Below are positions 1,152 to 60,569 of a stretch of 64,000 bases of DNA, one piece after another. Below the pieces are notes generated by a model that worked only from the letters and a program-made list of their open reading frames with translations, was not told the origin of the DNA and searched no databases. The DNA comes from Vicinamibacteria bacterium (GTDB taxonomy: Bacteria; Acidobacteriota; Vicinamibacteria; Vicinamibacterales; JAENWD01): positions 431,403 through 495,402 of the forward strand of contig CAVRDA010000021.1 in NCBI GenBank assembly GCA_963719755.1, in the 5' to 3' direction. The position numbers and the translations under genes were made by a program. Within the stretch, counting starts at the first letter, position 1; each line of letters opens with the position of its first letter.

Positions 1152-1249
1152 CCAACCAGATCAACCTGACCAACCGGATCAACCTGATCAACCTGATCAA
1201 CCAACCAACCCGACGTAACCTGACGAAACCCGACGTAACCCGACGCAAC
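1152..1249. repeat. tandem array of degenerate 9-10-nt units (GATCAACCT x about 6, then GACGTAACCY x 4) in a divergent promoter region
   Basis: Read directly: GATCAACCT GACCAACCG GATCAACCT GATCAACCT GATCAACCA ACCAACCC GACGTAACCT GACGAAACCC GACGTAACCC GACGCAAC. No complementary arm is present. Confidence 0.8.
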
Positions 1250-1258
1250 TCACTGGTA

Positions 1259-1264
1259 TATATT
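1259..1264 (+). promoter_or_regulatory. -10-like hexamer TATATT, 7 nt upstream of GTG 1272 (candidate leaderless promoter)
   Basis: The sequence reads tggTATATATTcctccccGTG. There is no purine-rich SD between the hexamer and the start. Confidence 0.35.
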
Positions 1265-1271
1265 CCTCCCC

Positions 1272-2121
1272 GTGCCTCGCTTCCCTCTCTCTTTCTCCAC
1301 GCTCGGCTGCCCGAAGTGGCCGTGGCGCAACGTGCTCGATCAGGCATCGCGCCTCGGCTATGCGGGCATCGAGCTCCGGGGCCTCGAAGGCGAGATCGAC
1401 CTGCTCAAGCGCCCGGAGTTCAGCGCGCGGTCCATCGCCACGTCGCTGAAGGACCTGGCCGCGCTCGATCTCGTCATCACCGATCTTGGAGCGTCGGCGC
1501 GGCTGCACGAGCCCGTTGCGACAGGTACTGGCCGCGCAGATGGATGAAGCGCGGCGGTACATCGATCTCGCGCATCGGCTCGGGGCACCCTGGGTGCGGG
1601 TCTTCCCGGACCGCTTCGTGCCGGGCGAGCCGCGAGAGGCGACCATCGCGCGCGTCGGGGCGAACCTCGCGCAGCTCGGCTGGTTTGCGAAGGGCAGCGG
1701 CGTCGGGGTGCTCGTCGAGTCTCACGGCGAGTTCACGGATTCGCCGAGCCTCGAGGCGATGATGAAGGCCGCCGGCGACGCGCCAGGCGTCGGCCTGCTG
1801 TGGGACACCCATCACACCGTCTCCGCGGGCAAGGAGAAGCCGGGGGACACCTGGGCGCGGCTGGGGCGATGGGTGCATCACACCCACATCAAGGACTCGA
1901 AGCCCGGCGAGAAGGAAGTCCACTACGTGCTCACCGGTGAAGGCACCATCGGCGTCCGCGACGTCGTCCGTGCGCTGGCCGCCGGCGGCTATTCGGGCTT
2001 CTACGGCTTCGAATGGGAGAAGCAGTGGCACCCCGAGATCGCCGAGCCCGAGGTCGCGTTTCCGCAGTACGCCGAGGTGATGCGCACGTGGCTCGCCGAG
2101 GCGGGAGTCCGCGCCAAGTAG
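1272..2121 (+). CDS. sugar phosphate isomerase/epimerase (xylose isomerase-like TIM barrel); frame broken near 1513
   Basis: ORFs 1272..1547 and 1486..2121 join into one protein (LGYAGIELR..., WVRVFP, VLVESHGEF, HTHIKD, GFEWEK). Confidence 0.75.
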
Positions 2122-2174
2122 GACCGCAGCGCCCGGTCAGTGGCTCTGAGCAACGGCTGCGGAGAGACGGCTGA

Positions 2175-2951
2175 TCAGGCCGCTCGCCGTGCCCGGGTGA
2201 AGAGCGGCGCGACCAGTGAGACCACTTCAGCGGCCGTCGAGACGTCTGCCTGCAGGAATCGGACGCTGCGGCGGCCGATCGTGGCAAGGTCCAGCGGCGC
2301 CGACGGGCGCTCGGCCAGCGGCACGTCCAGCAGCATCGCGCCGATCGTGCGTCCGGCGATGCCTCCCATCATGAAGACGTAGAGCAGCGTGATCAGCGCG
2401 AGCACGGTGAAGACCGCGATGCCCGACTCGCTCACGAGCTCCCGGATCGTCAGGCCGCAGGAGAACGCCGTCATCACCAGCACGCCGACATAGAGCGCCG
2501 CCAGCATCAGTCCGTCGATCGAGGCGGCAGCCAGCCTGCGGCCGCTGCGATCGGAGGCGCCGCGCGCGATCGTCTCGGGGCGGTTCGTGTCCTTCACCAG
2601 CGAGTTGTGGCGGTCGAGAATCTGCTTCAGCAGGTGCATCCGCGCATCAGGAATGAGCTGCGCCGATGCAACCCGCGCCGCGCCATTCGCGGCGTCCGGA
2701 TGCGGCGCGCCAGCGGCCTGCGCCGACGGCAACTCGTCGGCCAGCGTGCCGAGGACGACGTCCGCGTCGACGCCGATGGCCTCCGCGTACGCACGCACGA
2801 AGGCACGCGTATAGAAGCCCGGCGGAAGCCCGCTCCATTCGCCTTCCTCGATCTTCCTGAGGTAGCCGACGCCAATCCTGGTTCGACGGCTGATCTCGGT
2901 GAGACTCAGCCCCTTTGCCATCCGGATTCGCCGCAGCTCTGCAATGGTCAT
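2175..2951 (-). CDS. RodZ/XRE-like HTH domain protein with C-terminal RDD-type membrane domain
   Basis: MTIAELRRIRMAKGLSLTEISRRTRIGVGYLRKIEEG is followed by hydrophobic segments. An AAGGAG SD precedes ATG 2951. The 434-aa track ORF is an Arg-rich upstream extension. Confidence 0.7.
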   Translation of the reverse strand: MTIAELRRIRMAKGLSLTEISRRTRIGVGYLRKIEEGEWSGLPPGFYTRAFVRAYAEAIGVDADVVLGTLADELPSAQAAGAPHPDAANGAARVASAQLIPDARMHLLKQILDRHNSLVKDTNRPETIARGASDRSGRRLAAASIDGLMLAALYVGVLVMTAFSCGLTIRELVSESGIAVFTVLALITLLYVFMMGGIAGRTIGAMLLDVPLAERPSAPLDLATIGRRSVRFLQADVSTAAEVVSLVAPLFTRARRAA

Positions 2952-5828: not shown

Positions 5829-5864
5829 GGCCTTCGGCGTTCAGCCTTCAGCCTTCAGACGGCC
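5829..5864. repeat. heptamer ladder GCCTTCG GCGTTCA GCCTTCA GCCTTCA GACGGCC between two convergent stop codons
   Basis: Read directly. The plus-gene stop is TAG 5824-5826. The minus-gene stop (5855-5857) lies inside the last GCCTTCA unit. Confidence 0.75.
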
Positions 5865-7235: not shown

Positions 7236-7557
7236 GGCTGCGACACCTGGCGCGTCCCGGTGCGGTCGCCAATGGCGATCGACGCGCGGAACACGCGATC
7301 AAAGCTCGGTGATGGGGAGGCGCCTCCGGCGGGCGAGCCTTCAGGCCGCCGCGGGAGACTAGCTACAGGTGCAGCGACAACACGCGCAGGACGACAGCAG
7401 CCGTCCTGGGACCAGGCGGGGAGCGGGCAGCAAGGGGCGCGCGCTCGAGGTCATTGAGGCGAGTGTAACACGAGGAAATCCTGCCCGTCACGCTGCGCTT
7501 CGCCTGCCGGAAAGATCCGCAACCCGACGTGCGGCGGCTCTGCAACAGCGACCGGGA

Positions 7558-7580
7558 ATCCGCAGCGTTCATCTGCGGAT
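7558..7580. repeat. hairpin ATCCGCAG-cgttcat-CTGCGGAT (CGCAGAT dialect)
   Basis: Perfect 8-bp stem read directly. The block aatccgcagcgttcatctgcggatcg resembles the right end of the 42723-42929 element. Confidence 0.6.
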
Positions 7581-7604
7581 CGCTGCTGCCGCCGCGGTGA
7601 TGAG

Positions 7605-8512: not shown

Positions 8513-10543
8513 CTAGCGGAACGAACGTGGCAGCAGCGGCTCCTGCGCAAGCCGGGCGCGCACTTCTTCCGACCACCCCAGCACGACGTCGAGCGCTGTG
8601 GCCGGCCGGTCACGGCGGACGACGAGCACGCGGCCGTCGGGCGCGGTGCCCAGGATCCGCGCGACGCCGTCGGCGACGGGCCGTGCCGGGGCGGCGCCAC
8701 CAGACATCCGATCGACCGCGCTGGCCATCAGCGCGTCGTCATTGAGGAACCACAGGGTCGCGCCGTCGCGCGACCAGGTCGCGGTCGAACCGGCAGCGAC
8801 TATCTGAACCGCGTTGGGGTCGGACAGCCGGCGCACCGGCGCGAGCGCGATCTGCGAGACGCCCGCGCTGGTGGACGTCCACGCAAGCAGGGCGCCATCC
8901 GGCGAGATGGCCGGGTCGGTCTCGTCGGCGGCGGTCGAGACGCGCGCGACCGGCTCCGCAGTCCCAGGTCGCGAGACGACGATGTCGAGGCCGAGCTCCG
9001 GCTGATGCACCACGAGCCGCGACGCGAGGCCGGCCGTCACACGAGGCGGCAGCGCCTGCAGCTTCATCTGCGTCCCGCGCGCGAGGTTGATTCGCCAATA
9101 CTCGAGCGCGCCGGCGGCGGATGTCGACGCGAGCAGGTTCTCGCCGTCGGCCTCGAGAGCAATCGGCGTGCGCTTGTCCGGCGCGGGACCGTCGGCCCGG
9201 CGGCCATCCGGCGTGATCCAGCTGAGGGAGATGCCGTCTGAAGGCGCTGGAACGCTGACGGCGGCGCCGCGCGACGACAACGCGAAGAGCGGCGCGCCGT
9301 CCAGCGAGCGCCGCACCGTGAGCGGCAGCGGCACGTCGCGTTCGGGGATCAGCGTCCGCGGGTCGAAGGGCAGCGCCAGCGGCCGGTCGCCGCGCCAGGC
9401 AATCAGCTCGCCCGTCGGAAGCAGCCACGGAAAGGTCGCGTGCTCGGCGACAGTCGACGTGCGCAGCGTGCTCTGAGACCTGGCCTGCACGCGTACGCCG
9501 CGATCTCCGTCAGCGCGGTCGCTTGCGTACAGCACCAGCCCGGTCGCGTCGACGCGCGGCCAGGCATGCCGTGCGTCCCCGCTGGCGGAATCGAGGGTGG
9601 TCACCGCCCTGACAGGTCCGCCGGCCGCCGGGACGCGGCTGAGCCCTTCGCCCCACCGCGCGGCGAAGACGATCCCGTCGTCTGCCCAGACGCCGCCGCC
9701 CGGCGCCGGTGCATCGGCCAGCGGCACCGGCTCGCCGCCGGCGACTGCGATACGGAGCAGCCGTCCGCCCGCGAAGTAACCGAGCGTTCGCGCATCCGGG
9801 GAGAAGAAGGGCGCCTCGGCTCCCTCGGTGCCGGCAAGTTCGCGCGACGCCGCGTCCGCAAGGCTTCGGACGAACAGCTTCGGCGACTCACGAGGTCGCG
9901 CGGCAACGAACGCGACGGATGAGGAGTCGGGCGCAAACGCCAGCGCCGGCGCGCGGTCGGCGACCTGGTAGCCGTCCGGCAGCGCGAGGGTGAAGCGTGC
10001 GACGGTCTCGCGCGGCGCCGCGGGTTGCTGGCGCAGGCTCCACAGAATCGACGTCCCGAGGATCCCTCCGACGACCGCGAGCACCCACGGCAGCCACGGC
10101 GTCCAGAGCGGCCGGGCGTCCTCAACTGGCGGCTCCAGAACAGGCGGAACGGCCAGGACCTCCGGGCCTTCGATGGACGCCGCGAACCGATAGCCCCGCC
10201 TCGGGATCGTCTGGATGTAGTCGCCGCGCTGCGGATCGTCTCCAAGCGCCTGCCGGAGCAGGCTGACGGCCTCGGCGAGCGACGTGTCCGTGACGTGAGT
10301 GTCCTTCCACACCTCGTCGAGCAGCGCCTGCTTCGACACCACCTGCCCCGGCCGTGCCACCAGCACCGCGAGCACGCCGGTCGCGCGCGGCGGCAGCGCC
10401 AGCCGCACGCCGTTCCGGTAGAGGAATCCGTTGGCGCGGTCGAAGCGAAATGGCCCGAAAACGGCGTCTTGAGGAGAGCTTGACGAAACCTTCAGGCCGC
10501 CTTCAGGACTTCGGGATGCGCCTTCCGCCATGCTGCCCGCCAC
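8513..10543 (-). CDS. CadC-like winged-helix (OmpR/PhoB-type) regulator with a TM segment and a TolB-like beta-propeller sensor domain
   Basis: Intact 676-aa ORF: FGPFRFD...IQTIPRRGYRF DNA-binding domain, one TM helix, then repeated FSPDG/SPDG propeller motifs. The start may be ATG 10531. Confidence 0.8.
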   Translation of the reverse strand: MAGSMAEGASRSPEGGLKVSSSSPQDAVFGPFRFDRANGFLYRNGVRLALPPRATGVLAVLVARPGQVVSKQALLDEVWKDTHVTDTSLAEAVSLLRQALGDDPQRGDYIQTIPRRGYRFAASIEGPEVLAVPPVLEPPVEDARPLWTPWLPWVLAVVGGILGTSILWSLRQQPAAPRETVARFTLALPDGYQVADRAPALAFAPDSSSVAFVAARPRESPKLFVRSLADAASRELAGTEGAEAPFFSPDARTLGYFAGGRLLRIAVAGGEPVPLADAPAPGGGVWADDGIVFAARWGEGLSRVPAAGGPVRAVTTLDSASGDARHAWPRVDATGLVLYASDRADGDRGVRVQARSQSTLRTSTVAEHATFPWLLPTGELIAWRGDRPLALPFDPRTLIPERDVPLPLTVRRSLDGAPLFALSSRGAAVSVPAPSDGISLSWITPDGRRADGPAPDKRTPIALEADGENLLASTSAAGALEYWRINLARGTQMKLQALPPRVTAGLASRLVVHQPELGLDIVVSRPGTAEPVARVSTAADETDPAISPDGALLAWTSTSAGVSQIALAPVRRLSDPNAVQIVAAGSTATWSRDGATLWFLNDDALMASAVDRMSGGAAPARPVADGVARILGTAPDGRVLVVRRDRPATALDVVLGWSEEVRARLAQEPLLPRSFR

Positions 10544-10594
10544 GGGGACAGGGTACCGCAGGGCGCGGGAACGAGGAGCGTGGGAGCGGGAGCA

Positions 10595-12065
10595 GTGTCA
10601 CTGTTTGCGACGAAGTCGATCGACATGTTGAAGGCCGAGGCTGGCGCGCGGCGGTCTTCGCCGGGTGCTGGGCAGGACGGATCTCGTCCTGCTGGGTGTG
10701 GGCGCGGTAATCGGCGCCGGCATCTTCGTGCTCACGGGCCAGGCTGCGGCGGCCAACGCGGGGCCGGCCATTGTCCTTTCCATGCTGCTCGCGGGCCTCG
10801 TCTCGGCGCTGGCCGGGCTCTGCTACGCGGAGTTCGCTTCCACGGTGCCGGTGTCGGGCTCGGCCTACACGTACACCTACGCCACGCTCGGCGAGCTGGT
10901 GGCGTGGATGATCGGCTGGGACCTCGTCCTGGAGTACGCGCTCGGCGCGGCGACCGTGGCGGTGAGCTGGTCCGGGCACTTCGTCGGCTTCGCGCAGCAG
11001 CTGGGCATCCACCTGCCGCCGACCCTGAGCGCGGCGCCCGGCACGCTGGTCGCCGTCGCCGGGGGCGACCCGGTGACCGCGGTCTTCAACCTGCCGGCGG
11101 TGGTGATTACGGCGCTGGTGACAGCACTGCTGGTGGTCGGCATCAGGGAATCGGCCGCCTTCAACGCCGCGATGGTCGTGGTCAAGGTCGGCGTCGTCGC
11201 CATCGTCATCGCCGTGGGCGTGTTCTTCATCGCTCCGGGCAACCTGCACCCGTTCATCCCCGAGAACACCGGCACCTTCGGCGAGTACGGCTGGAGCGGC
11301 ATCGTCCGCGGGGCGGCGGTCATCTTCTTCTCGTTCATCGGCTTCGATGCCGTGTCCACGGCTGCGCAGGAAGCGCGGGCGCCGCAGCGCGACATGCCGG
11401 TGGGCATCCTCGGCTCGCTCGCAATCTGCACGACGCTCTACATGCTGGTGTCATTCGTGATGGTCGGCATGGTGCCCTTCAAGACGATGCTCGGAAGCCC
11501 GGCGCCGATGATCGTCGCGCTCGACGCCGTGCTCGGCCGCGCCGAGGTCGGCTGGACGACCCTGCTCGCGATCGTGAAGGTGCTGGTGGAGATCGGCGCG
11601 CTCGCCGGGCTGACGTCCGTGATGCTCGTGATGATGCTCGCGCAGCCGCGCATCTTCCATTCGATGGCAAAGGACGGACTGCTGCCGGCGTTCGCCGCGC
11701 GCATTCACCCGCGCTGGGGCACGCCGGCGACGATGACCGTCGTCACGGGTGTCGCGGTCGCCCTGGCGGCAGGATTCACGCCGGTCTCCGTGCTCGGGCA
11801 GCTCGTGAGCATCGGGACGCTCTTCGCGTTCGTCGTCGTCGCCATTGGGGTGCTCTTCCTTCGCGCGCGGCGGCCCGATCTCGAGCGTCCCTTCCGCACC
11901 CCGTGGGTGCCCTTCCTGCCCGTGTTGTCCGTGATTGTCAGCTCGATCCTGATGGTCAGCCTGCCGTGGGCGACGTGGGAGCGGCTGCTGATCTGGATGG
12001 CGATCGGCACGGTCATCTACGCCGCGTACGGCTACCGCAACAGCGTGCTGAGGCGGCAGGCGTGA
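10595..12065 (+). CDS. APC-family amino acid permease; frame broken near 10640
   Basis: The N-terminus VSLFATKSIDMLKAEAG (GTG 10595) joins ORF 10665..12065 (GVGAVIGAGIFVLTG, 12 TM-like segments). Confidence 0.8.
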
Positions 12066-42929: not shown

Positions 42930-42972
42930 TCGCCGCCGCACACCGACGCAGTGCCGGAACTGAAGTTCCGGC

Positions 42973-45670: not shown

Positions 45671-45751
45671 TGCCAGGGTGCTCCCTCTACTTGTGTTGTC
45701 GAATGGCACCCGCCCGAATCGACACCGCCAGACGCCGGTCGCAAAGATTTC

Positions 45752-45759
45752 TCTAGAAT
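45752..45759 (+). promoter_or_regulatory. TCTAGAAT -10-like element upstream of the PQQ dehydrogenase gene (with GGAGG SD downstream)
   Basis: The sequence reads gatttcTCTAGAATggcgggcGGAGGcgcacgccgggATG. Confidence 0.35.
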
Positions 45760-45782
45760 GGCGGGCGGAGGCGCACGCCGGG

Positions 45783-47748: not shown

Positions 47749-47761
47749 ACGCGGGACCGCG

Positions 47762-49059: not shown

Positions 49060-49193
49060 CGCATCCTCCAGTGATCGTTGCATCTCATTGTGGCCAGCCC
49101 AGCCTCTCGCGAACATTAGACCTTGGTCCAACGGCCGCTGAGGCTGAGTTTGCACCTGCGTCTGCCACAATGTGCGTTGCGAGAGGATAGCGC

Positions 49194-50438: not shown

Positions 50439-50475
50439 GCCGCCGAATCGGCGGTTGTCGACAAAATCACCACGG

Positions 50476-50481
50476 TAAAGT
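50476..50481 (+). promoter_or_regulatory. -10-like TAAAGT, 6 nt upstream of GTG 50488
   Basis: The sequence reads cacggTAAAGTagcagcGTG, preceded by the small hairpin CCGCCGAaTCGGCGG (50440-50454) after the upstream stop. Confidence 0.3.
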
Positions 50482-50487
50482 AGCAGC

Positions 50488-51621
50488 GTGCGAGGCCTCC
50501 TGATCGGATTGGCGTGGCTCCTCGTCTTCGGCCTCGGCGTCCAGACGCCGCCGCCGCGCCCCGGCCGGCCGTGATCGGATATCTGTTCCCGCAGGAGACG
50601 CTGCTCGATCCGGCCGCCATCGCCGCGGACAAGCTCACCCACATCAACTACGCCTTTGCCAACATCCGAAACGGGGTCGTCGTCGAGGGCTTCTCGCGGG
50701 ACGCCGAGAACTTCAAGGTGCTCGCCGGGCTGCGTCGCGCGCATCCGCACCTGAAGGTGCTGGTGTCGGTGGGCGGCTGGACCTGGTCTGGCGGCTTCTC
50801 GGATGCGGCGCTCACGCCGGCGTCGCGCGCGGCGTTCGTGTCGAGCGCGGTGGACTTCGTCCGGCGTCACGATCTCGACGGCTTCGACGTGGACTGGGAG
50901 TATCCGGGCCTCCCCGGAAACGGCAACACGCACCGGCCCGAGGACAAGCCGAACTTCACGGCGTTGATGGCCGAGCTGCGCATGGCGCTGGACAAGGACG
51001 GGCGCGAGCGCAGCCGGTCGTACCTGCTCACGCTCGCTGTCGGCGCCTTCCCGCGGTTCCTCGAGCACACCGAGATGGCGAAGGTGCAGGCGTCGGCCGA
51101 CTTCGTGAACCTGATGACCTACGACTTCCGGGTCGCCTCGGTCGATCGCATCGCCGGCCATCACGCCAACCTGTTCGATTCCCCGGCCGACGACGAAGGG
51201 GCGGTCGGCCGACCGCGCGGTGCGCGAGTTCCTGGCCGCCGGGGTGCCGGCGCAGAAGCTGGTGCTCGGCGTGCCGTTCTACGGGCGGGCATGGACGGAC
51301 GTCGCGCCGCAGAACAACGGCCTCTATCAGCCGGGTGTCGCGCCTCGCGAGCGCATGGATCTGGCGTACGGGCGGCTGTCGACGGAAGTCGTCGGACGCG
51401 ACGGCTTCGTGCGGTTCTGGGACGCGACCGCGAACGCGCCCTATCTCTGGAACGCGGAACGGCGGACGTTCATCGCCTACGACGACCCGGAGTCGCTCGG
51501 CCTCAAGACCCAGTACGTGCTCACCCACGGTCTCGGCGGCGTGATGTTCTGGCAGTACGGCGAAGACCCGACCGGCGCGCTGCTGAACGCGCTCGATGCC
51601 GGCCTGCGACGCCGGCCCTGA
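50488..51621 (+). CDS. GH18 chitinase-like glycoside hydrolase; two frame breaks (near 50560 and 51200)
   Basis: Signal peptide VRGLLIGLAWLLVFGLG, catalytic DGFDVDWEYP, LMTYDF and GGVMFWQYGED. Confidence 0.8.
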
Positions 51622-51684
51622 GTTCACTCGGGCCGAGGCTTGTCGGCGAGGGGGTCGCGCGACCAGGGCGTGCGCACAGCGCGG

Positions 51685-54345
51685 CTACTGATCGCGCAAG
51701 ACGACGAGCGGATCGACGCCCATCGCCCGCCGCGTCGGCACGTAGCAGGCGGTGAGCGTGACGAGCGAGACGACAAACGCGACGGCCGCGTAGGTGGCGG
51801 GATCGGTCGGGCTGATGCCGTAGAGCTCGCTGGCCAGCAACCTCGTGACCGCCAGCGCGCCGGCGACGCCAATCGCGATGCCGGCGGCGCAGAGCATCGC
51901 GCCTTCCTTGATGACCAGCCAGAACACGTCGCGCCGCTGGGCGCCGAGCGCGAACCTGATGCCGAGGTCGCGGGTCTGCCTGGACACGAGGAACGAGAGC
52001 ACGCCGTAGACGCCGGTGCAGCCGAGCACCAGCGCCAGGCCTGCCATCGTGACGAGCAGCGACGTCGTCGCGGCCGGCGCGGCGACCGCGTCGGCAAACA
52101 CCGCGCGCATCGGCTTGACGTCGTCCACCACCACGTCGCCGCTGATGTCAGCGGCGGCCCGGCGGAGCATCGTCGCCGTCTGCTCGCTGGACAGCGACGT
52201 GCGGAGCGTCAGCGTCATGTCCGCGGCGATGCGCCCGTCCTCCATCGTCGCGTTTGGCCCATGAGGCACGTAGAGCGTGCCGACAATCCAGTCCGGCACG
52301 TTGCGGGTGGGGTCGAACGCGCGCACGTCCGCCGACGACGCCGACGACGGTGTGCCAGTGGTCTTCGCCGACGAAGCGCACGTGCCGGCCGATGGGATTC
52401 TGGTCCGTTCCAGAACTGCTTCGCCGCCGACGCGGTCACGATGGCGACGGGCGGACCAGCGAGGTCCTCGGCGCGAACGGCGCGGCCCGATTCGAGGCGG
52501 ATGCCCATGACGCCGGAAGTAGTCCGGCGTGATCACGTTCATCCAGAAGAGCGGCGCGCTCTTCGATGCCGGCACCGTGTAGCCCTCGATGTCGAGCGAC
52601 CGCTTCGCGACGGCGCCGCTCAGCGGCAGCGTGTTCACGAACGCAGCGCCGGTCACGCCGGGCATCGCCTGCACGCTCGTCGTCGAGCGTGCGGTAGAAG
52701 GCGAGGCACCGTTCCGCCGTGTCGCACAGCGACTCGGTCGGCGAGATGCGCGCAGTGATCACCTGATCGGGCCGGAAGCCGAGGTCGGCGCGCGAGAGAG
52801 ACCACATGCTGCGGACGAGCAGACCGGCGGTGATGACGAGCAGTACCGCGCAGGCAATCTGCGCCACCGCCAGCGCGGTCCTGAACGGCCGCGCGATCGA
52901 CCGGCCGCCGGAACGGCCGCCGGATTCAAGTGTCGTGCGCAGCTTGATGCGCAGCGCCTGCAGGACCGGGGCCAGGCCGAACGCGCAGCCAGTCAGGATC
53001 GCCAGGGCGCCGGTGAACGCCAGCACGCGCCAGTTCAGGTGCACCTCGTCGAGGCGCGGCGTATCGGCGGGCAGCACGAGCTTCAGAATCGACAGCGCCT
53101 GCGACGCCAGCAGCAGGCCGGCGGCCGCGCGCCAGGCGAGGCCAGCACGACGCTCTCGGTCAGCAGCTGCCGCGCGATGCGCCACGGCCCTGCGCCCATC
53201 GCGGAACGGATCCCGATTTCACGCTGGCGGGAGATGGCCCTCGAGAGACTGAGGTTGGCGACGTTCGCGCACGCGATGACGAGCACGAGCGCGACGGCGG
53301 CGATGAGGATCAACAGCCGCGTGCGGACGCCGCCGACGAGCGCGTCCTGAAGCGGCATCACCGCCAGGTTCTCGTTCCAGTCGTCGGGCATCCGCCACGG
53401 GAACCGCGCGCGGACCCGCGACTGAAAGAGCTGCAGCTCCGACTGCGCCTGCGACATCTGCGCGCCCGGACGAAGCCGGCCGACGACCGGCATGAAGTCG
53501 CCCGCCCAGTAGTGCGTGGTGTTCGCGGGATCGAGACCGAGCGGCACCCACACCTGCGTTCTCGCCGAGGGGAACTGGAACGACGCCGGCATGACGGCGA
53601 CGACCTCGCGCGGCACGCCGTCGAGCTCGATGAACCGGCCGACGATGCCGGGGTCCTGATGAAAGCGTGTGGCCCAGATGGCGTGGCTGAGGATCACGGA
53701 CCGGTCGCGCGGCGCGTGGTCCTCTCCAGGGCGAAGCCATCGGCCGAGCGCCGGCTTCACTCCGAGCACCGAGAAGAGCTCGGCGGAGACGCGAGTGCCG
53801 GAGATCCGTGCCGGGTCGCCGGCGCCGGTGAGCGTGAACGACTTGCCTTCGGCGTAGACGCCGACGTCGAGGCTTCGCACTTCGTCGCGCATCGCGGCGA
53901 ACGCGCCGTTCGGGTACGAGGCCTTGACGCTGACGAGCCTGTCGGACGCCGGATAGGGAAGACGCGCGAGCAGGATGCCGTCGACCAGGCTGAAGACGGC
54001 GGTGTTGACGCCGCTGCCGAGCGCGAGCGTGAGAACGGCGACGGCGGTGTAGCCCGGGCTGCGCAGCAGGGTACGCAGCGCGTATCGCACGTCCTGCAGG
54101 CCGCTGACGATCAGATCGACGCGGCGCTCGTCGCGGCAGCGCTCCTTTGACTGGTCGACGCCGCCGAAGTCCCGCACGACCACCCGCCAGGCTTCGTCGC
54201 GATCCATGCCGGCAGCCACCCGCTCTTCGACCTGGCGCTCCAGGTGGTACTGGATCTCGTCGTCCAGGTCCTGGTCGACCTGGCGGCGGCGGACGATCGA
54301 CCGCCACCTGAGGGGCAGGGCGTACAGCCAGTGTTCGAGCCGCAT
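51685..54345 (-). CDS. ADOP-family duplicated MacB/FtsX-type permease (padR-coupled); about five frame breaks (near 53140, 52685, 52505, 52395, 52330)
   Basis: MRLEHWLYALPLRWRSIVRRRQVDQDLDDEIQYHLE... N-terminus and ACANVANLSLSR. The C-terminal FtsX module is in ORF 51685..52674. The pieces lie in ORFs 53083, 52436, 52215 and 52148. Confidence 0.75.
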
Positions 54346-54360
54346 GGCTTACCTTCGGCG

Positions 54361-54696
54361 TTATGCGCGATTGAGGTTCACGACGTGGGTGATCGCAGCC
54401 GAGAGCCGCGCCCAGTTCTCCGTTTCCTTCGCGAGGTGGCGGTGCCCGAGGCGGCTGAGCGCGTAGAACTTCGCGCGGCGGTTGTTCTCGGTGACGCGCC
54501 ACGTCGCGGTCACCCAGCCTTCCTGTTCCAGCTTGTGCAGGGCCGGGTAGAGCGACCCGTCGCTCACCTGCAGCGTGTTGCCCGACACCTGCTTCAGCCG
54601 CTGGCTGATGGCATGGCCGTTCAGCGGCTCGAGCGCGAGTATCTTCAGCAGCAGCAGGTCCAGCGTGCCCTGGACGAGATCCTGGGGTTTGCTCAT
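54361..54696 (-). CDS. PadR family transcriptional regulator (acidobacterial type, upstream of ADOP)
   Basis: MSKPQDLVQGTLDLLLLKILALEPLNGHAISQRL...SDGSLYPALHKLEQEGWV. The stop lies 15 nt upstream of the ADOP start. Confidence 0.85.
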   Translation of the reverse strand: MSKPQDLVQGTLDLLLLKILALEPLNGHAISQRLKQVSGNTLQVSDGSLYPALHKLEQEGWVTATWRVTENNRRAKFYALSRLGHRHLAKETENWARLSAAITHVVNLNRA

Positions 54697-54701
54697 GTGC
54701 C

Positions 54702-54743
54702 CTCGGTTACCGAGAGGAGCATACCAGACGCTCCGCTCGGTAA
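54702..54743 (-). promoter_or_regulatory. perfect palindrome CTCGGT-A-ACCGAG next to the padR ATG plus an upstream complementary copy (8-bp inverted repeat TTACCGAG/CTCGGTAA); candidate PadR operator
   Basis: The minus strand reads cTTACCGAGcggagcgtctggtatgctcctCTCGGTAACCGAGggcacATG. Confidence 0.45.
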
Positions 54744-54757
54744 GCAAGGGGAGGACG

Positions 54758-54879
54758 TGTAGGGATTGTAGGGTTGTAGGTTGTGAGGTTGTAGGGTGGC
54801 CGTTGTAGGGTTGTGCCGTAGGTAGGGAGATACCCCAGTCCTCCCTACAACCCCACGACCCTCACAACCCCACAACCCT
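54758..54879. repeat. heptamer/octamer-ladder palindrome, GGGTTGTA dialect
   Basis: TGTAGGGAT TGTAGGGT TGTAGGT TGTGAGGT TGTAGGG..TTGTAGGGT... with core GTAGGGAG (54822-54829) pairing CTCCCTAC (54841-54848), then ACAACCCCACGACCCTCACAACCCCACAACCC. Confidence 0.85.
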
Positions 54880-54884
54880 CTTCC

Positions 54885-55688
54885 TTACTGCGGCATCGGG
54901 ATCACGCCGAAGGCCTGATACAGCTTCTCCATGTTGGCGCGGAGCGGGCCGAACGCGGACAGCGTCGTCGGCGACGCACCGGCGGCGGTGGTGTCCTTGC
55001 TGAGCTTTCCGGCGCTGTCGAACATCAGCCGCGCCTCGGCGGTCGCAGGCTTGTCGTCGTCGATGCGCGACTTGACGGTCTTGCACGCCTTGGACAGATC
55101 GTCGGCCTGCTTCTTCAGCGCGTCGCGCTGCGGTTGCGCGATGGCCTGATCGCGCTCGATCGCGTTCTTGACATCGTCAGCCTGCTTGGCCGCCAGCTCC
55201 GCCGCCTCCGCGGTTTCGTTGTCGTTCATGCGGCGCGCAGCGCCATCGGCGGGCATCGGAAAGGTCGTGCCGTACGCCGAGGCGAGCGTGCCCATCAGGC
55301 CGGCGAGACGATCCCATTCGCTCGAGCCCTTCATGGTGTTGGGCTGCCCCTTCATGTAGCCGTTGATGTCAGTCCCCTGCCTCAGCACTGTCAGCGCTTC
55401 GCTGCTCGCCGAGTAGTCGGACGAAAAGCGCTCCTTGAGGCGATTCACGTTCTCCTGCAAGTCGTCGAGGTACTGGTCGACTTTCACCTCGCCGCGCGGC
55501 CCTCGCACGATCGAGTTCTTGAAATCATTGTCGAGGGCATCCTCGAACCGATCGCGGCCTTGGTGGACGTCTTCGATCAGCTTCTTCAGGTCGTTGTCGT
55601 TCAGCCGCGGAACGTCCTGGGCGCCGACGATGCCGGCGACGAGGATTGCCGCGGCGACGAGAAGACCGTTTCGGTGGAATCTGGACAT
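54885..55688 (-). CDS. hypothetical secreted protein
   Basis: Intact from ATG 55688 (MSRFHRNGLLVAAAILVAGIVGAQD signal peptide). Helical, charge-rich. No family recognised. Confidence 0.55.
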   Translation of the reverse strand: MSRFHRNGLLVAAAILVAGIVGAQDVPRLNDNDLKKLIEDVHQGRDRFEDALDNDFKNSIVRGPRGEVKVDQYLDDLQENVNRLKERFSSDYSASSEALTVLRQGTDINGYMKGQPNTMKGSSEWDRLAGLMGTLASAYGTTFPMPADGAARRMNDNETAEAAELAAKQADDVKNAIERDQAIAQPQRDALKKQADDLSKACKTVKSRIDDDKPATAEARLMFDSAGKLSKDTTAAGASPTTLSAFGPLRANMEKLYQAFGVIPMPQ

Positions 55689-55804
55689 GTGCTTACCCCC
55701 CACGCCCTGTGCCTCTAACCGCTGCGCCTCTCGGCGCATCGGCGCAGCATACGCCCGCGGGAGCTTCGGAGGAGTGAGACCTTGGTCCTATTTCCGGGAG
55801 TGCG

Positions 55805-56578
55805 TCAGCGCTTCCGGGCCCGTCCGGGTGCCGCAAACCGTCGCTGGACGGCAGGACTGCCGAGCTCGCGCAGCGCGTCCTTTCCGATCCAGCGGGACGC
55901 GGCGTTCGGGGATTCGGCAAGCCGGCCAGCCACCTCGAGCGCGGCCGCGTTCAGCGCGGCGTTCCGCCACCCGACGCGCCGCAGGGCCCAGCTCACCCCT
56001 TTCTTGACGAAGTTGCGCTCGTCGCCGGCGGCGCGCTCCACGTAGCCGAGGCCTTCGAGGAACCGGTCGTCGCCGGCGGTCTTGTCGTGTCCGGCAAGAC
56101 TTGCCAGCAGCGCAAACGACGCGCGCTTGACGTACTCGTCGCGATGGCCGTGCCACTTGGCGACCTTGTCCCAGGCGTACGGCGTGCGGTCGAAGAGGCA
56201 GAAGCAGAGGGTGTCGCAGATGCCCCAGTTGTCGAAGTCCCGACACCAGCGATCCATCTGCGCCGACGTCACCTGCTCAGGCTCATCCACGTACGCCGTC
56301 AGCAGCCGCGCCTCGTACACGCCGGTGTCCCACAGCGCGGCGGCAAGCTCATGGCTCCGTCCGAGGCGCTTGGCCAGCTTCTGGATGTTGGCGATCGAGA
56401 CGCCGTACGCCTTGCTGGCGGTGATGCCGAACCGCGCGAGGTTCTCGCGGTCGCGCACGGTGCTCATTCGCTCCAGCGCGGCCAGGGCATCCTTCACCTG
56501 CGCGCGCAGATCGGCGGCGCTGGCGACAGGCCGCGTCTCGACCTTCTTCCGCGGCTTCTTCACGGCGTTCGATGGCAT
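55805..56578 (-). CDS. DNA alkylation repair protein (AlkD-like HEAT-repeat family)
   Basis: Intact 257-aa ORF with ...LWDTGVYEARLLTAYVDEP...WCRDFDNWGICDTLC...RNFVKKGVSWALR. Confidence 0.75.
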   Translation of the reverse strand: MPSNAVKKPRKKVETRPVASAADLRAQVKDALAALERMSTVRDRENLARFGITASKAYGVSIANIQKLAKRLGRSHELAAALWDTGVYEARLLTAYVDEPEQVTSAQMDRWCRDFDNWGICDTLCFCLFDRTPYAWDKVAKWHGHRDEYVKRASFALLASLAGHDKTAGDDRFLEGLGYVERAAGDERNFVKKGVSWALRRVGWRNAALNAAALEVAGRLAESPNAASRWIGKDALRELGSPAVQRRFAAPGRARKR

Positions 56579-56599
56579 CTGGTTCGCTCCGTTGGCGGC

Positions 56600-57853
56600 C
56601 TACAGCATCCGCAGCCAGGAGTTCGGCGGCCGCCGGCGCTTGAACCTGCCGTACCAGAGGCACGGCACGTACAGCAGCGCGAGTCCCAGCATCCAATACG
56701 CGTACATCCGTGGAATCGGCATGCCGGCCGGGAAGTGCCGGCCGATGGCGGCATACAGCCACAGGTGGGTGATGAAGAAGAAGAGCGGCACGGATCCGAA
56801 CACGCGCAGCGGCGTCAGCCAGCTCGATTCCCCCACACCGCCCCGCTCGATCGCCCACAGCAGCACGAAGTTGGTGCCGAGCGTCAGCAGCAGGAACGTC
56901 AGGCTGGGCGGGTACTTCGTCACGTTCAGGAAGCCGATCCAGCCGCCGGCTGGCGGCTGAAAGCTGCCGATGCCGCCGGTGGCGCGAAGGACGACGAAGC
57001 CGACCAGGAAAACAAGGCCCGCGATTGCGATCTCGACGAACGCGCGGCGGCGATCCTCCTCGAGCCGCCGGCCGAACGCCACGCCGACGAGCGTCGGCGC
57101 CAGCCACGGAATCGTCGGATAGACGGCCAGCAGCGGGCTGGCAATTCCCGGCACGAGCAGCAGCCCCGCCAGCGGCGAGATCGGATCGCCGACGTGCGCG
57201 GGACCGGGAATGAGCCAGGCTGTCAGCAGCACGCAGACGCCAGCAAGGCCGACGAGCGCCATCGACGGCAGCCTGATGAGCAGCGCCGTCACCGCGAGCG
57301 CCGAACCCAGCCCGTAGAGCACGCCGAGGCTGATCACCACGGGGCCGGGCGCGCCCGGCACGCGCAGGCCGTAGGTCTCGACGCGAGTCGCGCCGGCAAA
57401 GGCAAACGGCGATGCCAGGTTCTCGAAGACCTGGCCCAGCGCGATCAGCACAATCCCGCGCACGGCCAGATTCACGACGATGCGCCGTGGACTCCAGCCG
57501 GCACGCGCGCGCGATGCCGCGAAGAGCGCGGCCCCGGCGCCCATCAGGAACATGAAGCCTGGCGCGCAGAGGTGCGTGACCAGCCGCGTCACGAATGCCA
57601 CCCAGTCGCCGTGGTAGTCGGGCAGGCTCGATCCCCAGAACTCACCTGGATGGCTCTTGGCAATGAACCCTCGCGCGTGGTCGATCGCCATCAGGACGAT
57701 GATCAGGCCGCGCAGGACGTCGAGGGACGCAAGACGGGACGCGCTCGCCCGGTCGGGTTTGTCGGGCACGCGCGCGGCGGTTGCTGTCGGGGCTGATGCC
57801 ACACTGGCCTCCAGGCCCGCAGTATGCCCCGCTGCCCGCGGACCGGCCGTCAA
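56600..57853 (-). CDS. DUF1624 / heparan-alpha-glucosaminide N-acetyltransferase-like membrane protein (start uncertain)
   Basis: RLASLDVLRGLIIVLMAIDHAR followed by about 10 TM-like segments. Intact. Confidence 0.7.
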   Translation of the reverse strand: MTAGPRAAGHTAGLEASVASAPTATAARVPDKPDRASASRLASLDVLRGLIIVLMAIDHARGFIAKSHPGEFWGSSLPDYHGDWVAFVTRLVTHLCAPGFMFLMGAGAALFAASRARAGWSPRRIVVNLAVRGIVLIALGQVFENLASPFAFAGATRVETYGLRVPGAPGPVVISLGVLYGLGSALAVTALLIRLPSMALVGLAGVCVLLTAWLIPGPAHVGDPISPLAGLLLVPGIASPLLAVYPTIPWLAPTLVGVAFGRRLEEDRRRAFVEIAIAGLVFLVGFVVLRATGGIGSFQPPAGGWIGFLNVTKYPPSLTFLLLTLGTNFVLLWAIERGGVGESSWLTPLRVFGSVPLFFFITHLWLYAAIGRHFPAGMPIPRMYAYWMLGLALLYVPCLWYGRFKRRRPPNSWLRML

Positions 57854-57922
57854 GATTCCCTTAAGAAAGGTTGAAGGTGCCCGTCAGTGTCGTGCGTTCG
57901 GGCACGGAGATAAAGGGATCTT

Positions 57923-59300
57923 CTACTGACTTTTCTGCAGTCGCTTGATCCGGATGCGCCGGTACTCCATCTGCCCGCGGTCTCCTTCGACGCCAATCGG
58001 CCCAATCGCCGGCACCTTCAGCTCGCCTTCCAGCAGCTCGCCGTTGCAGGTCGCGCGAGCGACGCCGCCGGTCACCGTGATCTCCAGCTCGTTCCAGTCC
58101 TGCGGCTTGTAGCGCTTCAGGTCCTTGTAGGGGCCGGCCAGCGCGTAGTCGCGGCACTGGAGCTGCGGGCCGCGCACGTAGACGCCGCTGTCGGCGTTCG
58201 GCGTCGCCCGGAACTCCATCCGCAGCACGAAGTCGTCGCCGAACTCGCGCGTGGTGTGGAGCTGCTGGATCCGCCGGCCCGCCGGCGGCGTCGTCACTAC
58301 GAGCCGCCCGTTGATCACGACGAAGCGGCCGTCCGGGGTGGACGACAGGCCGTCGAAGGCGACCGGCTCGGTGACAAAGGGCCATTCGGCGGCGTTGGGG
58401 TCGCTGGCCTGCCATCGCTTCGCGCTCGTCTTGTCGGCCTCCGACGTCGCGCGGTAACCCCAGCCCGTCAGCGTGCGTCCGTCGAACAGGCTCTCGAACC
58501 CTTCCTCGAGCGCGAAAGTGTCCGGCGCCGTGTCCATCAGGCGAAGCGTCGCGAAGATCGGGCGCAGCGCCGCGGCCCACTTCGCGTACCCGATCAGGTT
58601 CGGATGGAGCAGGTCCGGGAACTCGGCCGACCGGCGCGTCGCCATTCGCGTCCGCGAACAGCAGCCACGTGTCGATCGGAATCACCTGCGCGTCGTTCTT
58701 CACGGCCGCCAGGTACAGCGCGTTGACCGCCTTGATCTGATCGGCCGGCCGCTTCATCGACGCCGCGCTCGGGAAGACCTGGCACAGGATCACCGGCGTG
58801 CGCGCGTTGTGCGCCTTCACGGCGGCGAGAATCAGCTTCAGGTTGCCGGCGATGGTGTCTGGCGTGGCCCGTTCCTCGAGATCGTTGGTGCCGATGAGCA
58901 GCACCACCGCCGCAGGATCCAGCGCGAGCACGTCATCCTGCAGCCTGATGAGGACACCGCGCGTCGTGTCGCCGTTGATGCCGCGATTGGCGACCTTGAC
59001 GCCGGGGAACGCGAACTGAAGGCCCACGTTCCAGCCTTGAGTGATCGAGTCGCCGAGGAAGACCACGGCGCCCCGATCCTTCTCGCGCTCGGCCGCCCAC
59101 TTCGATCGCCGCTCCCGCCAGGCCTGCTGGAACCAGTCGTAGCGGCGAATCGGGCCTGCACCGGGCAGGCCGTCGTCTGTGGCGGGAAGGGCGAAGCGGT
59201 CGGGCTTGGCGGTCTGCCCGTCAGCCGCGGACGTGCCGACGACGGACAGGGCCGCGATCAGGACGGCTGTCGCGAGGCGGAGTCGAGCGATGAACCACAT
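57923..59300 (-). CDS. secreted SGNH/GDSL hydrolase fused to a DUF1080 (3-keto-disaccharide hydrolase-like) domain; frame broken near 58640
   Basis: The VVFLGDSITQGW, GINGDTT and IGTNDL blocks, then LHPNLIGY. The C-terminal ORF 57923..58645 carries FDGRTLTGW...GPIGVEGDRGQMEYRRIRIK. Confidence 0.75.
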
Positions 59301-59358
59301 GCGCGAGAGGATACCCGACGCGGGCGGGTTTATAGTTACCCGTTCACGGGTGCCACCG

Positions 59359-59931
59359 ATGCCCAGCCGACAGTGTTACCACTGCAAGCAGTGGATCGAG
59401 GAAGGCGAAGCGCACGACTGCTGGACGACGACGGAGGCGGCGCTGACGAGCGAGCTTTCCGAGGACCTGCGCGACGCGTACGCGCGCCTGCGCGAGACGG
59501 CGCTCGCCTTCGGCGACCAGCGGGTCTACGCGTCGCACAAGTCGATCATGTTCTCGCGGGCGTCGTGCTACTTCTTCGTCCGCCCGAAGCGCAGCTTCCT
59601 CGAGGTCTGCGTGTTCCTGGGCCGCACGGTGAGAGCGCCGCAGGTGAGGCGCGTCGATCCGGCGTCGCGGTCCAAGATGGTCCACTTCCTCCGGATCACG
59701 CACCGCGACGAAGTCGAGCCGCCGGTCACCGGCTGGCTCCAGGAAGCCTACGAGTTGTCCGACGTCCTCGCGACGAAGCCGGCGCCGCGCCCGAAGGTGA
59801 CGACGGCGTCGAAGCGTCCCCGGGCGAAGGCTCGGGCCGCCAGGAAGAAGCCACGACCGCCAACCAGGAGAGCCGGCGCGGCAAAAGCGACGAAGGCCAG
59901 CGCCGCAAGGAAGAAGGCAAAGCGGCGCTAG
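59359..59931 (+). CDS. DUF5655-like protein with an N-terminal Cys/His cluster and a Lys/Arg/Ala-rich C-terminal tail
   Basis: MPSRQCYHCKQWIEEGEAHDC..., FFVRPKRSFLEVCVFLGR, and the tail KPAPRPKVTTASKRPRAKARAARKKPRPPTRRAGAAKATKASAARKKAKRR. Confidence 0.6.
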   Translation: MPSRQCYHCKQWIEEGEAHDCWTTTEAALTSELSEDLRDAYARLRETALAFGDQRVYASHKSIMFSRASCYFFVRPKRSFLEVCVFLGRTVRAPQVRRVDPASRSKMVHFLRITHRDEVEPPVTGWLQEAYELSDVLATKPAPRPKVTTASKRPRAKARAARKKPRPPTRRAGAAKATKASAARKKAKRR

Positions 59932-59949
59932 CCGGGCTCCTTCCCGCGA

Positions 59950-60405
59950 CTACTGCCCGTCGTACGCCTTCTGCAGCACCGCGATGTCGAGCTTCGTCAT
60001 CTGCAGCATGGCCTGCATGGCGCGCGACGAACGTGCGCCGTCGGGATCGCCCAGCATGCGGCCGAGGGCATTGGGGACGATCTGCCACGACAGCCCGAAC
60101 TTGTCCTTGAGCCAGCCGCAGCGGCTGGGCTCTCCGCCGTCGGCGAGGAGCTTCGTCCACAGCTCGTCGATTTCCGCCTGCGTCTCGCAGCCGACGAAGA
60201 ACGAGATGGCCTCGGTGAACTTGAACTGCGGGCCGGCGTTCAGGGCCATGAACTCCTGCCCCTCGAGCTCGAACTGCACGGACATCACCCGGCCGCCGGC
60301 GCGGTTGACGGAGATGACCTTCGAGCGCTTGAAGATCGAGGCATAGAAGTTCATCGCGTCTTCAGCCTCGGTGTCGAACCACAAGAACGGCGTAATCTTC
60401 GGCAT
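59950..60405 (-). CDS. VOC family protein (PhnB/YjdN-like)
   Basis: Intact 151-aa ORF with MPKITPFLWFDTEAEDAMNFYASIF...DKFGLSWQIVP. SD GAGGAG upstream. Confidence 0.8.
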   Translation of the reverse strand: MPKITPFLWFDTEAEDAMNFYASIFKRSKVISVNRAGGRVMSVQFELEGQEFMALNAGPQFKFTEAISFFVGCETQAEIDELWTKLLADGGEPSRCGWLKDKFGLSWQIVPNALGRMLGDPDGARSSRAMQAMLQMTKLDIAVLQKAYDGQ

Positions 60406-60502
60406 CGTCCTGACTCCTCAATGATCTGACGCGGCTCTTCCGCGTTCACAGGTCAGTCGGAGCCGATCGCCGCTTCTCGACATCGGCGCGCGCGGGGCGC
60501 GC

Positions 60503-60569
60503 GATTACGCCGATTGAAACTGGATTACGCGGAGGATCTATCCGCAGATTTCGCAGATTTCCCAGATTT
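60503..60569. repeat. CGCAGAT-dialect tandem units (GATTACGC x2; CGCAGATTT x3) overlapping the 3-prime end of the TetR gene
   Basis: The sequence reads GATTACGCcgattgaaactgGATTACGCggaggatctatcCGCAGATTTCGCAGATTTCCCAGATTTt. On the minus strand the 9-mers encode ...KSGKSAKSA.... Confidence 0.7.

Follow-up and report, generated by a model that had tools for sequence, protein, structure and literature searches.

Heptamer-ladder palindromes between the genes of a soil acidobacterium: a multi-family, fast-replacing form of a reported repeat type

Tandem heptamer repeats are over-represented in bacterial intergenic DNA, and polymerase slippage is the suggestion cited for their origin (PMC4692102). 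In the closest case described so far, that of Xanthomonas, two genomes hold 186 and 183 GGGAATC heptamer repeats, with 70-75 inverted pairs able to form stem-loops (Rehm 2015, PMC4692102); at conserved sites their length and sequence vary between the two species, and they have no known function (PMC4692102). Direct heptamer repeats of the unit TAACTGA occur in Beggiatoaceae and cyanobacteria (PMC4679880), and repetitive extragenic palindromic (REP) elements are single palindromes of 20-40 nt with conserved GTAG or CGTC heads, those with GTAG being associated with a REP-associated tyrosine transposase (RAYT) (PMC3733652). Here we describe a stretch of 64,000 nt, referred to below as the window, from the soil acidobacterium Vicinamibacteria bacterium (assembly GCA_963719755.1, contig CAVRDA010000021.1, positions 431,403-495,402), in which ladders of 7-10-nt units, followed by ladders of their reverse complements, form long palindromes between genes. 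A literature search for heptamer repeats in Acidobacteria found no report. An earlier reading made from the letters of this DNA (the sequence-only reading) could not match such an architecture to REP/BIME, ERIC, classical MITEs or CRISPR. The claim that it matches nothing known fails, as inverted pairs of heptamer arrays have been reported in Xanthomonas (PMC4692102), and the elements of the window do not form a category of their own but are a multi-family, fast-replacing form of a repeat type that is already on record.

The likeness extends to several properties. In Xanthomonas as in the window, tandem 7-nt units lie in non-coding DNA, at many loci as two arrays convergent on opposite strands that could form stem-loops or cruciforms, the number of units varies (2-26 in Xanthomonas campestris pv. 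campestris, Xcc), and the site is kept while length and sequence differ between related genomes. Arrays of at least two units, an inverted complementary array and unit variation at a conserved site were all found here, except that the inverted array is missing at 1152, 5829 and 60503. Yet the Xanthomonas repeats use a single G-rich unit that has been read as G-quadruplex-forming, whereas at least five unrelated units occur in the window; judged by sequence, only GGGTTGTA has four or more GGG runs, and the GTGC, GCCTTCR and CGCAGAT units lack four G3 runs. Unlike in Xanthomonas, periods of 8-10 nt are also found here, one dialect of units can be replaced outright by another at the same site, and the elements do not shun divergent regions (5/19).

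Tandem arrays of 7-8-nt units with their reverse complement behind them were found at seven loci (16334-16425, 19163-19284, 21920-22024, 36212-36342, 40355-40519, 45477-45670 and 54758-54879), and the core architecture proposed by the sequence-only reading is real there by array detection, partner scores and folding. Tandem Repeats Finder (TRF) gave arrays with periods other than multiples of three at 1207, 5830, 16332, 19170/19255, 36220/36309, 40354/40458, 45477/45638 and 54758/54843. Set against 100 block-wise dinucleotide shuffles, the TRF count was 7 versus 0.18 for period-7 arrays and 4 versus 0.24 for period-8 arrays; the period-7 arrays hold 3.6-12.6 copies, all outside coding frames. 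Autocorrelation at period 7, the check proposed together with the original claim, was passed by the 19 intergenic regions of the window (lag-7 z=11.6, with a lag-14 harmonic of z 5.1) and likewise by 50 intergenic regions of relatives (lag-7 z=11.7), which carry many unrelated units and were fetched via proteins, not via repeats; coding DNA showed period 3 only. For the arms of the five largest loci (19163, 36212, 40355, 45477 and 54758), reverse-complement partner scores were 13-24.5, against 7-17 for controls.

RNA folding was judged for each sequence against its dinucleotide shuffles, which replaced a raw minimum-free-energy (MFE) scan of the whole window because GC content dominates such a scan; the GC content of the window is 66-72%, and only 40355 stood out in the raw scan. 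The expected folding was borne out at seven loci (z -3.2 to -6.8) and, less strongly, at 16334 (z -2.45), but five others (7558-7580, 10489-10530, 19979-20009, 24774-24800 and 32052-32092) folded no better than shuffles (z +1.1 to -2.1). The MFE structure of the ladder hairpins has a low frequency in its ensemble (0.04-0.09), which fits the idea that many pairing registers are possible. No inverted arm was found at 1152-1260, 5829-5864 or 60503-60569, where there are direct arrays only (z -2.2, -1.3 and -0.3). The true ladder palindromes of the window therefore number about 7-8, and the previous count of 12 or more was an overstatement: about half of the 17 loci then listed are direct arrays only, short remnants or chance. 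The features are given below in window positions, none with an assigned strand; z refers to folding against dinucleotide shuffles.

1152-1260: solo arm of direct 9-mer (CCAACCNGAT) and then 10-mer (AACCCGACGN) arrays; partner score 7 against a control of 6, z -2.2; in the divergent region of an ABC ATPase gene (-) and an AP-endonuclease-2 gene (+).
5829-5864: direct array of four GCCTTCA units without an inverted arm, between convergent stop codons; z -1.3.
7490-7590: internally deleted remnant of the class II element defined below; by alignment, L001 has 237 nt more at the site; z -2.1.
16334-16425: GCCTTCR/YGAAGGC ladder palindrome, 88 nt against 43 nt in L001, downstream of FAD/BBE genes and upstream of a phosphorylase gene; z -2.45.
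19163-19284: GTGCNNN/NNNGCAC ladder palindrome found by TRF, its long left arm partly paired, filling the gap from the phosphorylase stop (19153) to a TetR stop (19280); z -3.2/-2.2.
19935-20012: shortened GCCTTCR palindrome in a TetR/adh_short divergent region; z of the window copy +0.8.
21920-22024: CGTCAGC/GCCTTCAG palindrome directly 3' of a cold-shock-protein gene; z -5.9.
28432-28500: repeats of the GCGAGCG(AA) family that lie between convergent genes; z -1.2.
32040-32116: short CGCAGA-type sequence between convergent genes; z -1.2.
36212-36342: ladder palindrome of nine GGGTTGTA and four TACAACCC units, filling the gap from an RDD/HAAS gene stop (36228) to an FtsX permease stop (36343); z -5.8/-6.6.
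40352-40519: near-perfect 165-nt GTGCNNN ladder palindrome between a KAS II stop (40351) and an FMN-reductase stop (40529); z -6.8 (from 40355).
42690-42935: class II composite element, with CGCAGAT-type 7-9-nt ladder arms around a nested palindrome; z -5.9 (from 42723).
45477-45670: GTGCNNN ladder palindrome in the divergent region of a MacB/FtsX permease gene (-) and a PQQ dehydrogenase gene (+); z -3.6.
54758-54879: GGGTTGTA/TACAACCC ladder palindrome between a gene for a 284-aa protein (stop 54885) and a PadR gene, both on the - strand; z -5.2/-6.0.
60503-60569: direct arrays only, two GATTACGC and three CGCAGATTT units, downstream of a TetR gene; z -0.3.

About 200 kb of the lineage was covered in all, including about 150 kb of related loci. 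Exact look-ups of the window's own proteins gave no match, and contigs of sister strains were used. The strain comparison rests on four loci from three related genomes, one represented by L001 and L125 (one contig), another by L126 and L145 (a Joint Genome Institute (JGI) contig), and L147 coming from a third sample. These loci cover positions 5955-29195, 31217-52460 and 45684-63051 of the window and align to it at 93-98% identity (95-98% in long blocks); L003 is a more distant relative, with 87% amino-acid identity. Gene ends were taken from Pfam hits and annotated relatives.

The four dialects distinguished previously lump unlike things together. True ladder palindromes stand at the GTGCNNN loci (19163, 40355 and 45477) and at the GGGTTGTA loci (36212 and 54758). 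Most members of the GCCTTCR list are weak or do not fold: it contains two real palindromes (16334 and 21920) and fragments, and one supposed copy, at 7338-7350, is actually the edge of an unrelated conserved non-coding block. The ATCTGCG/CGCAGAT group is a separate 250-330-nt composite, here called class II, in which a nested palindrome (GAACCCGGGCGAC...GTCGCCCGGGTTC), containing two or three inner hairpins, is surrounded by short 7-9-nt ladder arms; the element has a conserved core. Besides one copy of it (about 42690-42935), in which one inner hairpin is missing, the window holds the deleted remnant of 7490-7590; L001 has paralogues of the element at two further sites and L003 at one. No Rfam match to the class II region 42580-42980 was found at E<=1, and a metagenome scan with its left-end 20-mer GTCACGCTGCGCTKCGCGTG gave 18 matches, none with the element and most in unrelated efflux-pump-like coding sequence. 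The lineage has at least four further families, those seen in relatives being GGGAGTT/AACTCCC, CACAGAG/CTCTGTG, CGAGTGA/TCACTCG, GGGGCATA and GCGAGCG, the last also present at 28432-28500, which was missing from the earlier list, and at the KAS/FMN-reductase site in L125 and L126. A GTAG-headed, REP-like palindrome family (GTAGCGCAGG...CCTGCGCTAC) was found between convergent genes of relatives (L001 6426-6533; L126 822-881, which is L145 14923-14982) and is missing at the orthologous sites of the window, 13278 and 51622-51682. At least five unrelated units coexist in the window and eight or more in the lineage, and no core motif is conserved across the dialects.

Identical 11-13-mers at distant loci had been taken as proof that these families are dispersed. 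The shared words are present at the stated coordinates, but taken alone we rejected them as evidence, since 1,664 distinct 12-mers recur by chance in shuffles of the window. Other observations are more telling. The two-part order of the solo array at 1152-1260, (CAACCNGAT)n and then (AACCCGACGN)n, recurs in the right arm of a complete palindrome that L125 carries at its RDD/FtsX site; a 19-nt junction of the GGGAGTT family, CAACTCCCAAGGCGCCAGC, is common to non-orthologous sites in L001 and L003; and GGGTTGTA arrays stand at two unlinked sites of the window. In an unrelated acidobacterial metagenome-assembled genome (MAG), L059, two GTGCTGA palindromes 2 kb apart have a common central core, GTTCAAGCTTTTAGCTTGC, between their ladder arms. 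Judging by the composite arm order and the junctions at unlinked sites, some unit families are truly dispersed, and the view that these are not independently evolved terminator hairpins is upheld. A CRISPR array was considered and rejected, as the units are contiguous 7-10-mers without spacers and not 23-50-nt repeats with unique spacers.

The presence/absence polymorphism anticipated for orthologous intergenic regions was found in the relatives, and nearly all alignment breaks of more than 20 nt against the three of them fall within intergenic repeats. At some sites the dialect is kept and the number of units differs: 16334 measures 88 versus 43 nt, 19163 is 50 nt shorter in L001, both arms at 19979 are longer in L001 (+15 and +6 nt), and 45477 has 26 nt more in L126 and lacks its central ~73 nt in L125. 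At others the element is present in one strain and absent in another. Thus 54758 is present in L145 with 10- and 6-nt indels and absent in L147, which has 12 unrelated nt instead; at 13278 the stop codons overlap in the window and a 104-nt palindrome stands in L001; at 14868 L001 has a 330-nt class II copy that is absent in the window; and 51622 measures 60, 143 and 16 nt in three strains. At still others one dialect has taken the place of another: GGGTTGTA at 36230 faces a GGTTTCGTCR/AACCCGACGY palindrome in L125, the short CGCAGA-type sequence at 32039 a 169-nt AACTCCC/GGGAGTT palindrome in L125, and where the window has the 165-nt GTGC palindrome, at 40352, L125 has GCGAGCG repeats over 116 nt and L126 has about 25 nt (a 23-nt stop-to-stop gap by gene calls). 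In L003 the site 3' of the phosphorylase gene carries a GGGGCATA ladder instead of GTGC. No target-site duplication was seen at the filled-versus-empty sites 13278, 14868 and 54758, the empty sites carrying other short sequence.

Within class II, 28 of 80 nt of an inner hairpin, including 12 of 14 loop positions, differ between the L125 and L126 orthologues, although the flanks are 97% identical; five pairs are altered on both sides with pairing kept. Such a change is too great for point mutation at 3% flank divergence and implies module replacement or arm-to-arm copying. Conserved between strains are 24774 and 21920, and the region 21920-22250 (L001 15386-15721), adjoining the 3' end of the cold-shock-protein gene, holds the one large ladder palindrome with good conservation between strains. 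A segment at 10665-12065, absent in L001, was entertained as a transposon and rejected, being an amino-acid permease gene; this gene (10555-12059) is also present, as fragments, in L002, and L001 has in its place 80 nt with a GGGAGTT ladder.

The elements also share features with other kinds of intergenic repeats. The heptamer STRR (short tandemly repeated repetitive) sequences of heterocystous cyanobacteria were reportedly described by Mazel et al. in 1990. Like the present arrays, STRR and TAACTGA repeats are tandem heptamers scattered through intergenic regions, and a genome has several types of unit; unlike the present arrays, they are mainly direct arrays in low-GC genomes, the TAACTGA repeats lying upstream of start codons with one inverted case reported. 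Bacterial interspersed mosaic elements (BIMEs) are a major source of intergenic polymorphism between strains. REP, BIME and REPIN (REP doublets forming hairpins) sequences resemble the elements described here in being many-copy extragenic palindromes of several families, often paired into long hairpins, for which a part in termination and mRNA stabilisation has been proposed (PMC3116915, PMC3733652). In contrast to REPs, our elements are 90-200 nt long, consist of variable numbers of 7-10-nt units, have no conserved termini and, in the window and the relatives' loci, no RAYT was seen. GTAG recurs inside the GGGTTGTA arrays and CGTC inside those of CGTCAGC; the GTGC and GGGAGTT families have neither, and the GTAG-headed family occurs only in relatives. 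Miniature transposable elements with inverted repeats (MITEs) are comparable in length (100-330 nt), inverted ends, intergenic position and presence/absence polymorphism, and class II has a conserved core. On the other hand, we found no target-site duplication and no related full-length insertion sequence, and the arms are variable tandem arrays and not fixed terminal inverted repeats (TIRs).

As the sequence-only reading had it, several of the largest copies lie between convergent stop codons: the three largest convergent cases (19163, 36212 and 40352) run from stop codon to stop codon, filling a gap that is 0-25 nt in strains without the element. The element at 45477 lies between divergent starts, and 54758 and class II lie between co-directional genes. 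Strong self-complementarity (z>=4) marks 8 of the 15 convergent intergenic regions of relatives, 5 of the 19 divergent ones and 5 of the 26 co-directional ones (convergent 8/15 against 10/45 for the rest, Fisher p=0.048). Two negative statements of that reading hold as well: no T run follows any element, and no transposase Pfam family, RAYT included, was detected in about 30 open reading frames of the window, nor in the ~150 kb of relatives' loci. Canonical hairpin-plus-T terminators numbered 4 against 8.4±3.0 in shuffles across 30-50 kb, none of them at gene ends or elements.

Five GTGCNNN units, scanned for in 185,579 species genomes, gave at least 119 loci. Among the matches listed, 27 (23%) were from Acidobacteriota, 24 from Actinomycetota, 11 from Bacteroidota, 10 from Gemmatimonadota and 5 from Cyanobacteria, other phyla making up the rest. 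Unseeded arrays among the matches listed had an inverted partner in 19/26 cases in Acidobacteriota, 4/9 in cyanobacteria and 4/12 in Bacteroidota, as against 0/10 in Actinomycetota and 0/5 in Gemmatimonadota; clear ladder palindromes with varied units were present, again among the matches listed, in Calothrix, Nostoc, Chitinophagaceae, Hymenobacteraceae and Planctomycetota. GTGC-type palindromes have the G-rich arm first in 18 versus 6 of the matches listed, and in 21 versus 6 cases with the window included (p=0.006). No arrays were found in 22 kb of a lower-GC acidobacterium (L004). Ladder palindromes of the unit GAGTGCT/AGCACTC are found in Calothrix (L123, 1178-1360 and 2990-3108), in Nostoc (L081, 2164-2209) and in Acidobacteriota (L059 and L117), so that one unit is common to cyanobacteria of 39-42% GC and Acidobacteriota of 55-63% GC; only GTGC was fixed in the scan, so the TGA triplet that they have in common does not stem from the search itself. 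Among the matches listed, 16 of 119 lie within 200 nt of a contig end (L007, L008, L014, L015, L016, L030, L038, L039, L042, L045, L055, L062, L064, L089, L109 and L122), and heptamer ladders therefore appear to break short-read assemblies.

The surroundings of the elements are those of an acidobacterial genome, with pairs of PadR and MacB/FtsX permease genes, HAAS/RDD genes and Trans_reg_C-PD40 genes, and the closest named homologues of the window proteins come from Luteitalea, Blastocatellia and "Acidobacteria bacterium" MAGs. No tRNA and, at gathering score, no Rfam match was found in the whole window. A non-coding block of ~80-130 nt at 7340-7470 (L001 1550-1690; L003 6560-6660), with the sequence GGAGACTAGCTACAGRTGCAGSGACAACACG..CAGGACG(N7)CGTCCTGRGACCAGGCGGGRAGC, is conserved as far as the relative with 87% amino-acid identity, whereas the intergenic DNA around it is not; 7250-7520 had no Rfam match at E<=1, and the block could be a small RNA or a leader. 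At 19885-19930, between a TetR gene (19280-19868, -) and a divergent short-chain dehydrogenase gene (20015, +), a direct repeat of two ACGTTTAGTAT units is conserved in L001 and looks like a candidate TetR operator. About 88 nt at 62126-62214, inside a DUF418 gene, have no counterpart in the L147 alignment, which could reflect a deletion or an assembly error in L147.

How such elements arise can be approached from these comparisons. The explanation that we favour, to which we give an even chance, is that they are microsatellite-armed palindromes, shaped by slippage, arm-to-arm templated copying and exchange between loci, and tolerated between genes. Replication slippage would account for the gain and loss of units in an arm, as orthologous copies differ by whole units between flanks that are 94-98% identical. 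Since the arms are complementary, intramolecular template switching is possible and the arms may evolve in concert: switching at the hairpin would copy changes from one arm to the other, so that a palindrome could grow without selection. The arms at 19979 that gain units together in L001, and the class II pairs changed on both sides yet kept, are consistent with this. The loss of centres that is seen would reflect the instability of long palindromes, and the low-complexity arms could allow recombination or template switching by which whole arms or modules are copied from one locus to another, which would yield both dispersed dialect families and dialect replacement at one site. Elements persist above all between convergent stop codons, presumably because extra DNA is tolerated there. 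No dedicated transposase would be needed. Where transcribed, the elements would give very stable hairpins and plausibly act, incidentally, as terminators without a U-tract or as protectors of 3' ends; yet at one and the same site closely related strains have no element or an unrelated one, so a terminator role is not the reason for their existence. Several observations fit this explanation poorly. Identical units, junctions and two-part arm orders at unlinked loci need a copying route beyond slippage, and the wholesale replacement of a 165-nt element at <4% flank divergence is more like insertion or allelic recombination. The arms are often unequal (9 versus 4 units at 36212), so arm-to-arm copying is not efficient. 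The preference for exactly 7 nt is not accounted for, the GTAGCGCAGG...CCTGCGCTAC family of relatives has a REP-like GTAG head, and a transposase could lie elsewhere in the genome, about 200 kb of the lineage having been covered.

A possible, though clearly less probable, alternative sees in the elements non-autonomous mobile DNA like that of REP/REPIN or MITE sequences, each dialect family being moved by a transposase encoded elsewhere in the genome, such as RAYT or a TIR-associated tyrosine transposase (TIRYT) acting on single-stranded DNA hairpins; the tandem units would then serve as several sites of binding or cleavage, or would have expanded secondarily once inserted. Dispersal and replacement are explained better in this way than by slippage and copying: families with common composite arms and junctions are dispersed, elements come, go or are replaced at 13278, 14868, 32039, 36230, 40352, 51622 and 54758, modules are nested and swapped inside class II, and the L059 copies keep a core between their ladder arms. 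GTAG in each GGGTTGTA unit, CGTC in the CGTCAGC/AACCCGACG arrays and the GTAG-headed family of relatives recall REP heads, and Acidobacteria are reported to encode TIR-associated tyrosine transposases (PMC3733652). Yet about 200 kb of sequence gave it no direct support; neither the window nor about 150 kb of related loci yielded a transposase Pfam family, target-site duplications are missing and empty sites have unrelated short sequence instead of a clean excision scar, and copies of one family differ in their termini and in unit number. A cognate recognition system would have to be supposed for each of at least eight unrelated unit families, and the same architecture recurs with unrelated units in several phyla. 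We regard as rather doubtful, but worth stating, the idea that the elements are a distinct class of mobile or self-propagating cassette, heptamer-armed hairpins that are made and exchanged between gene ends by way of their structure; the route could be a hairpin-targeting enzyme or a template-switching pathway specific to element-rich lineages. If true, it would explain the like behaviour of unrelated families, same-site replacement at <4% divergence and the bias towards the G-rich arm first (21/27 GTGC-type elements). Selection for RNA hairpins is about equally improbable. On that account the elements would be bidirectional terminators without U-tracts and stabilisers of mRNA 3' ends in a 69% GC genome that lacks canonical terminators, and ladder arms would give robust folding in many registers. 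The filling of space between convergent stop codons by the largest copies, the convergent enrichment (8/15 versus 10/45, p=0.048), the very strong folding energies, the lack of enrichment of hairpin-plus-T terminators (4 versus 8.4±3.0), the pairs kept through two-sided changes and the conserved copy 3' of the cold-shock gene all agree with it. It is hard to reconcile, however, with 0-25-nt gaps and no hairpin at the same sites (13278 in the window, KAS/FMN-reductase in L126, 54758 in L147), with elements in a quarter of divergent (promoter) regions, including 45477, with solo and very unequal arms, or with lengths of 120-200 nt, far beyond the needs of termination. The sequence-only reading had also thought of phased protein-binding arrays. 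Such arrays on DNA or RNA, for a nucleoid protein or for cold-shock-type OB-fold proteins with one heptamer each, might be suggested by the strong period-7 signal, by the report that Bacillus subtilis CspB binds heptamer repeats with one protein per unit (PMC4679880) and by the one conserved element that adjoins a cold-shock gene; this nevertheless seems very unlikely, as at least eight families have units unrelated in sequence, the period may be 7, 8, 9 or 10 nt, no core motif is conserved across dialects, and neither the inverted arrangement nor rapid replacement is expected of binding arrays.

The assembly itself deserves comment in this context. The coding frame, followed by its high third-position GC, shifts six times across 22.5-24.7 kb in the Trans_reg_C/PD40 genes (22486-24700), and the phosphorylase gene (16411-19153) is split, with 559 aa called against 881-887 aa in relatives. 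These many frameshifts point to an error-prone long-read assembly; they are the reason why a codon-bias gene caller missed genes, and exact numbers of repeat units may be slightly off. The six frame changes and the shortened phosphorylase (559 versus 881 aa) are also what could be said for taking the repeat blocks as artefacts of an error-prone long-read metagenome assembly. We consider this to be vanishingly improbable: identical elements or same-site alleles recur in independent assemblies from other samples, including JGI contigs (L003, L126/L145) and many short-read MAGs of the k-mer (MEGAHIT-style) kind, and alleles are shared between assemblies in a mosaic fashion. The elements are therefore not artefacts.

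If the picture of microsatellite-armed palindromes holds, the elements would be the main source of structural difference between close strains of abundant, poorly studied soil bacteria, and would offer a natural system for following the growth, collapse and spread of palindromes and microsatellites where no transposase is obvious. The way in which high-GC bacteria terminate transcripts without U-tracts could also be learnt from them. In practice, they would serve as ready-made strain markers, as well as being a cause of breaks in short-read assemblies. The long-noted excess of heptamers in bacterial intergenic DNA may thus become more tractable in a lineage in which many unit types coexist.

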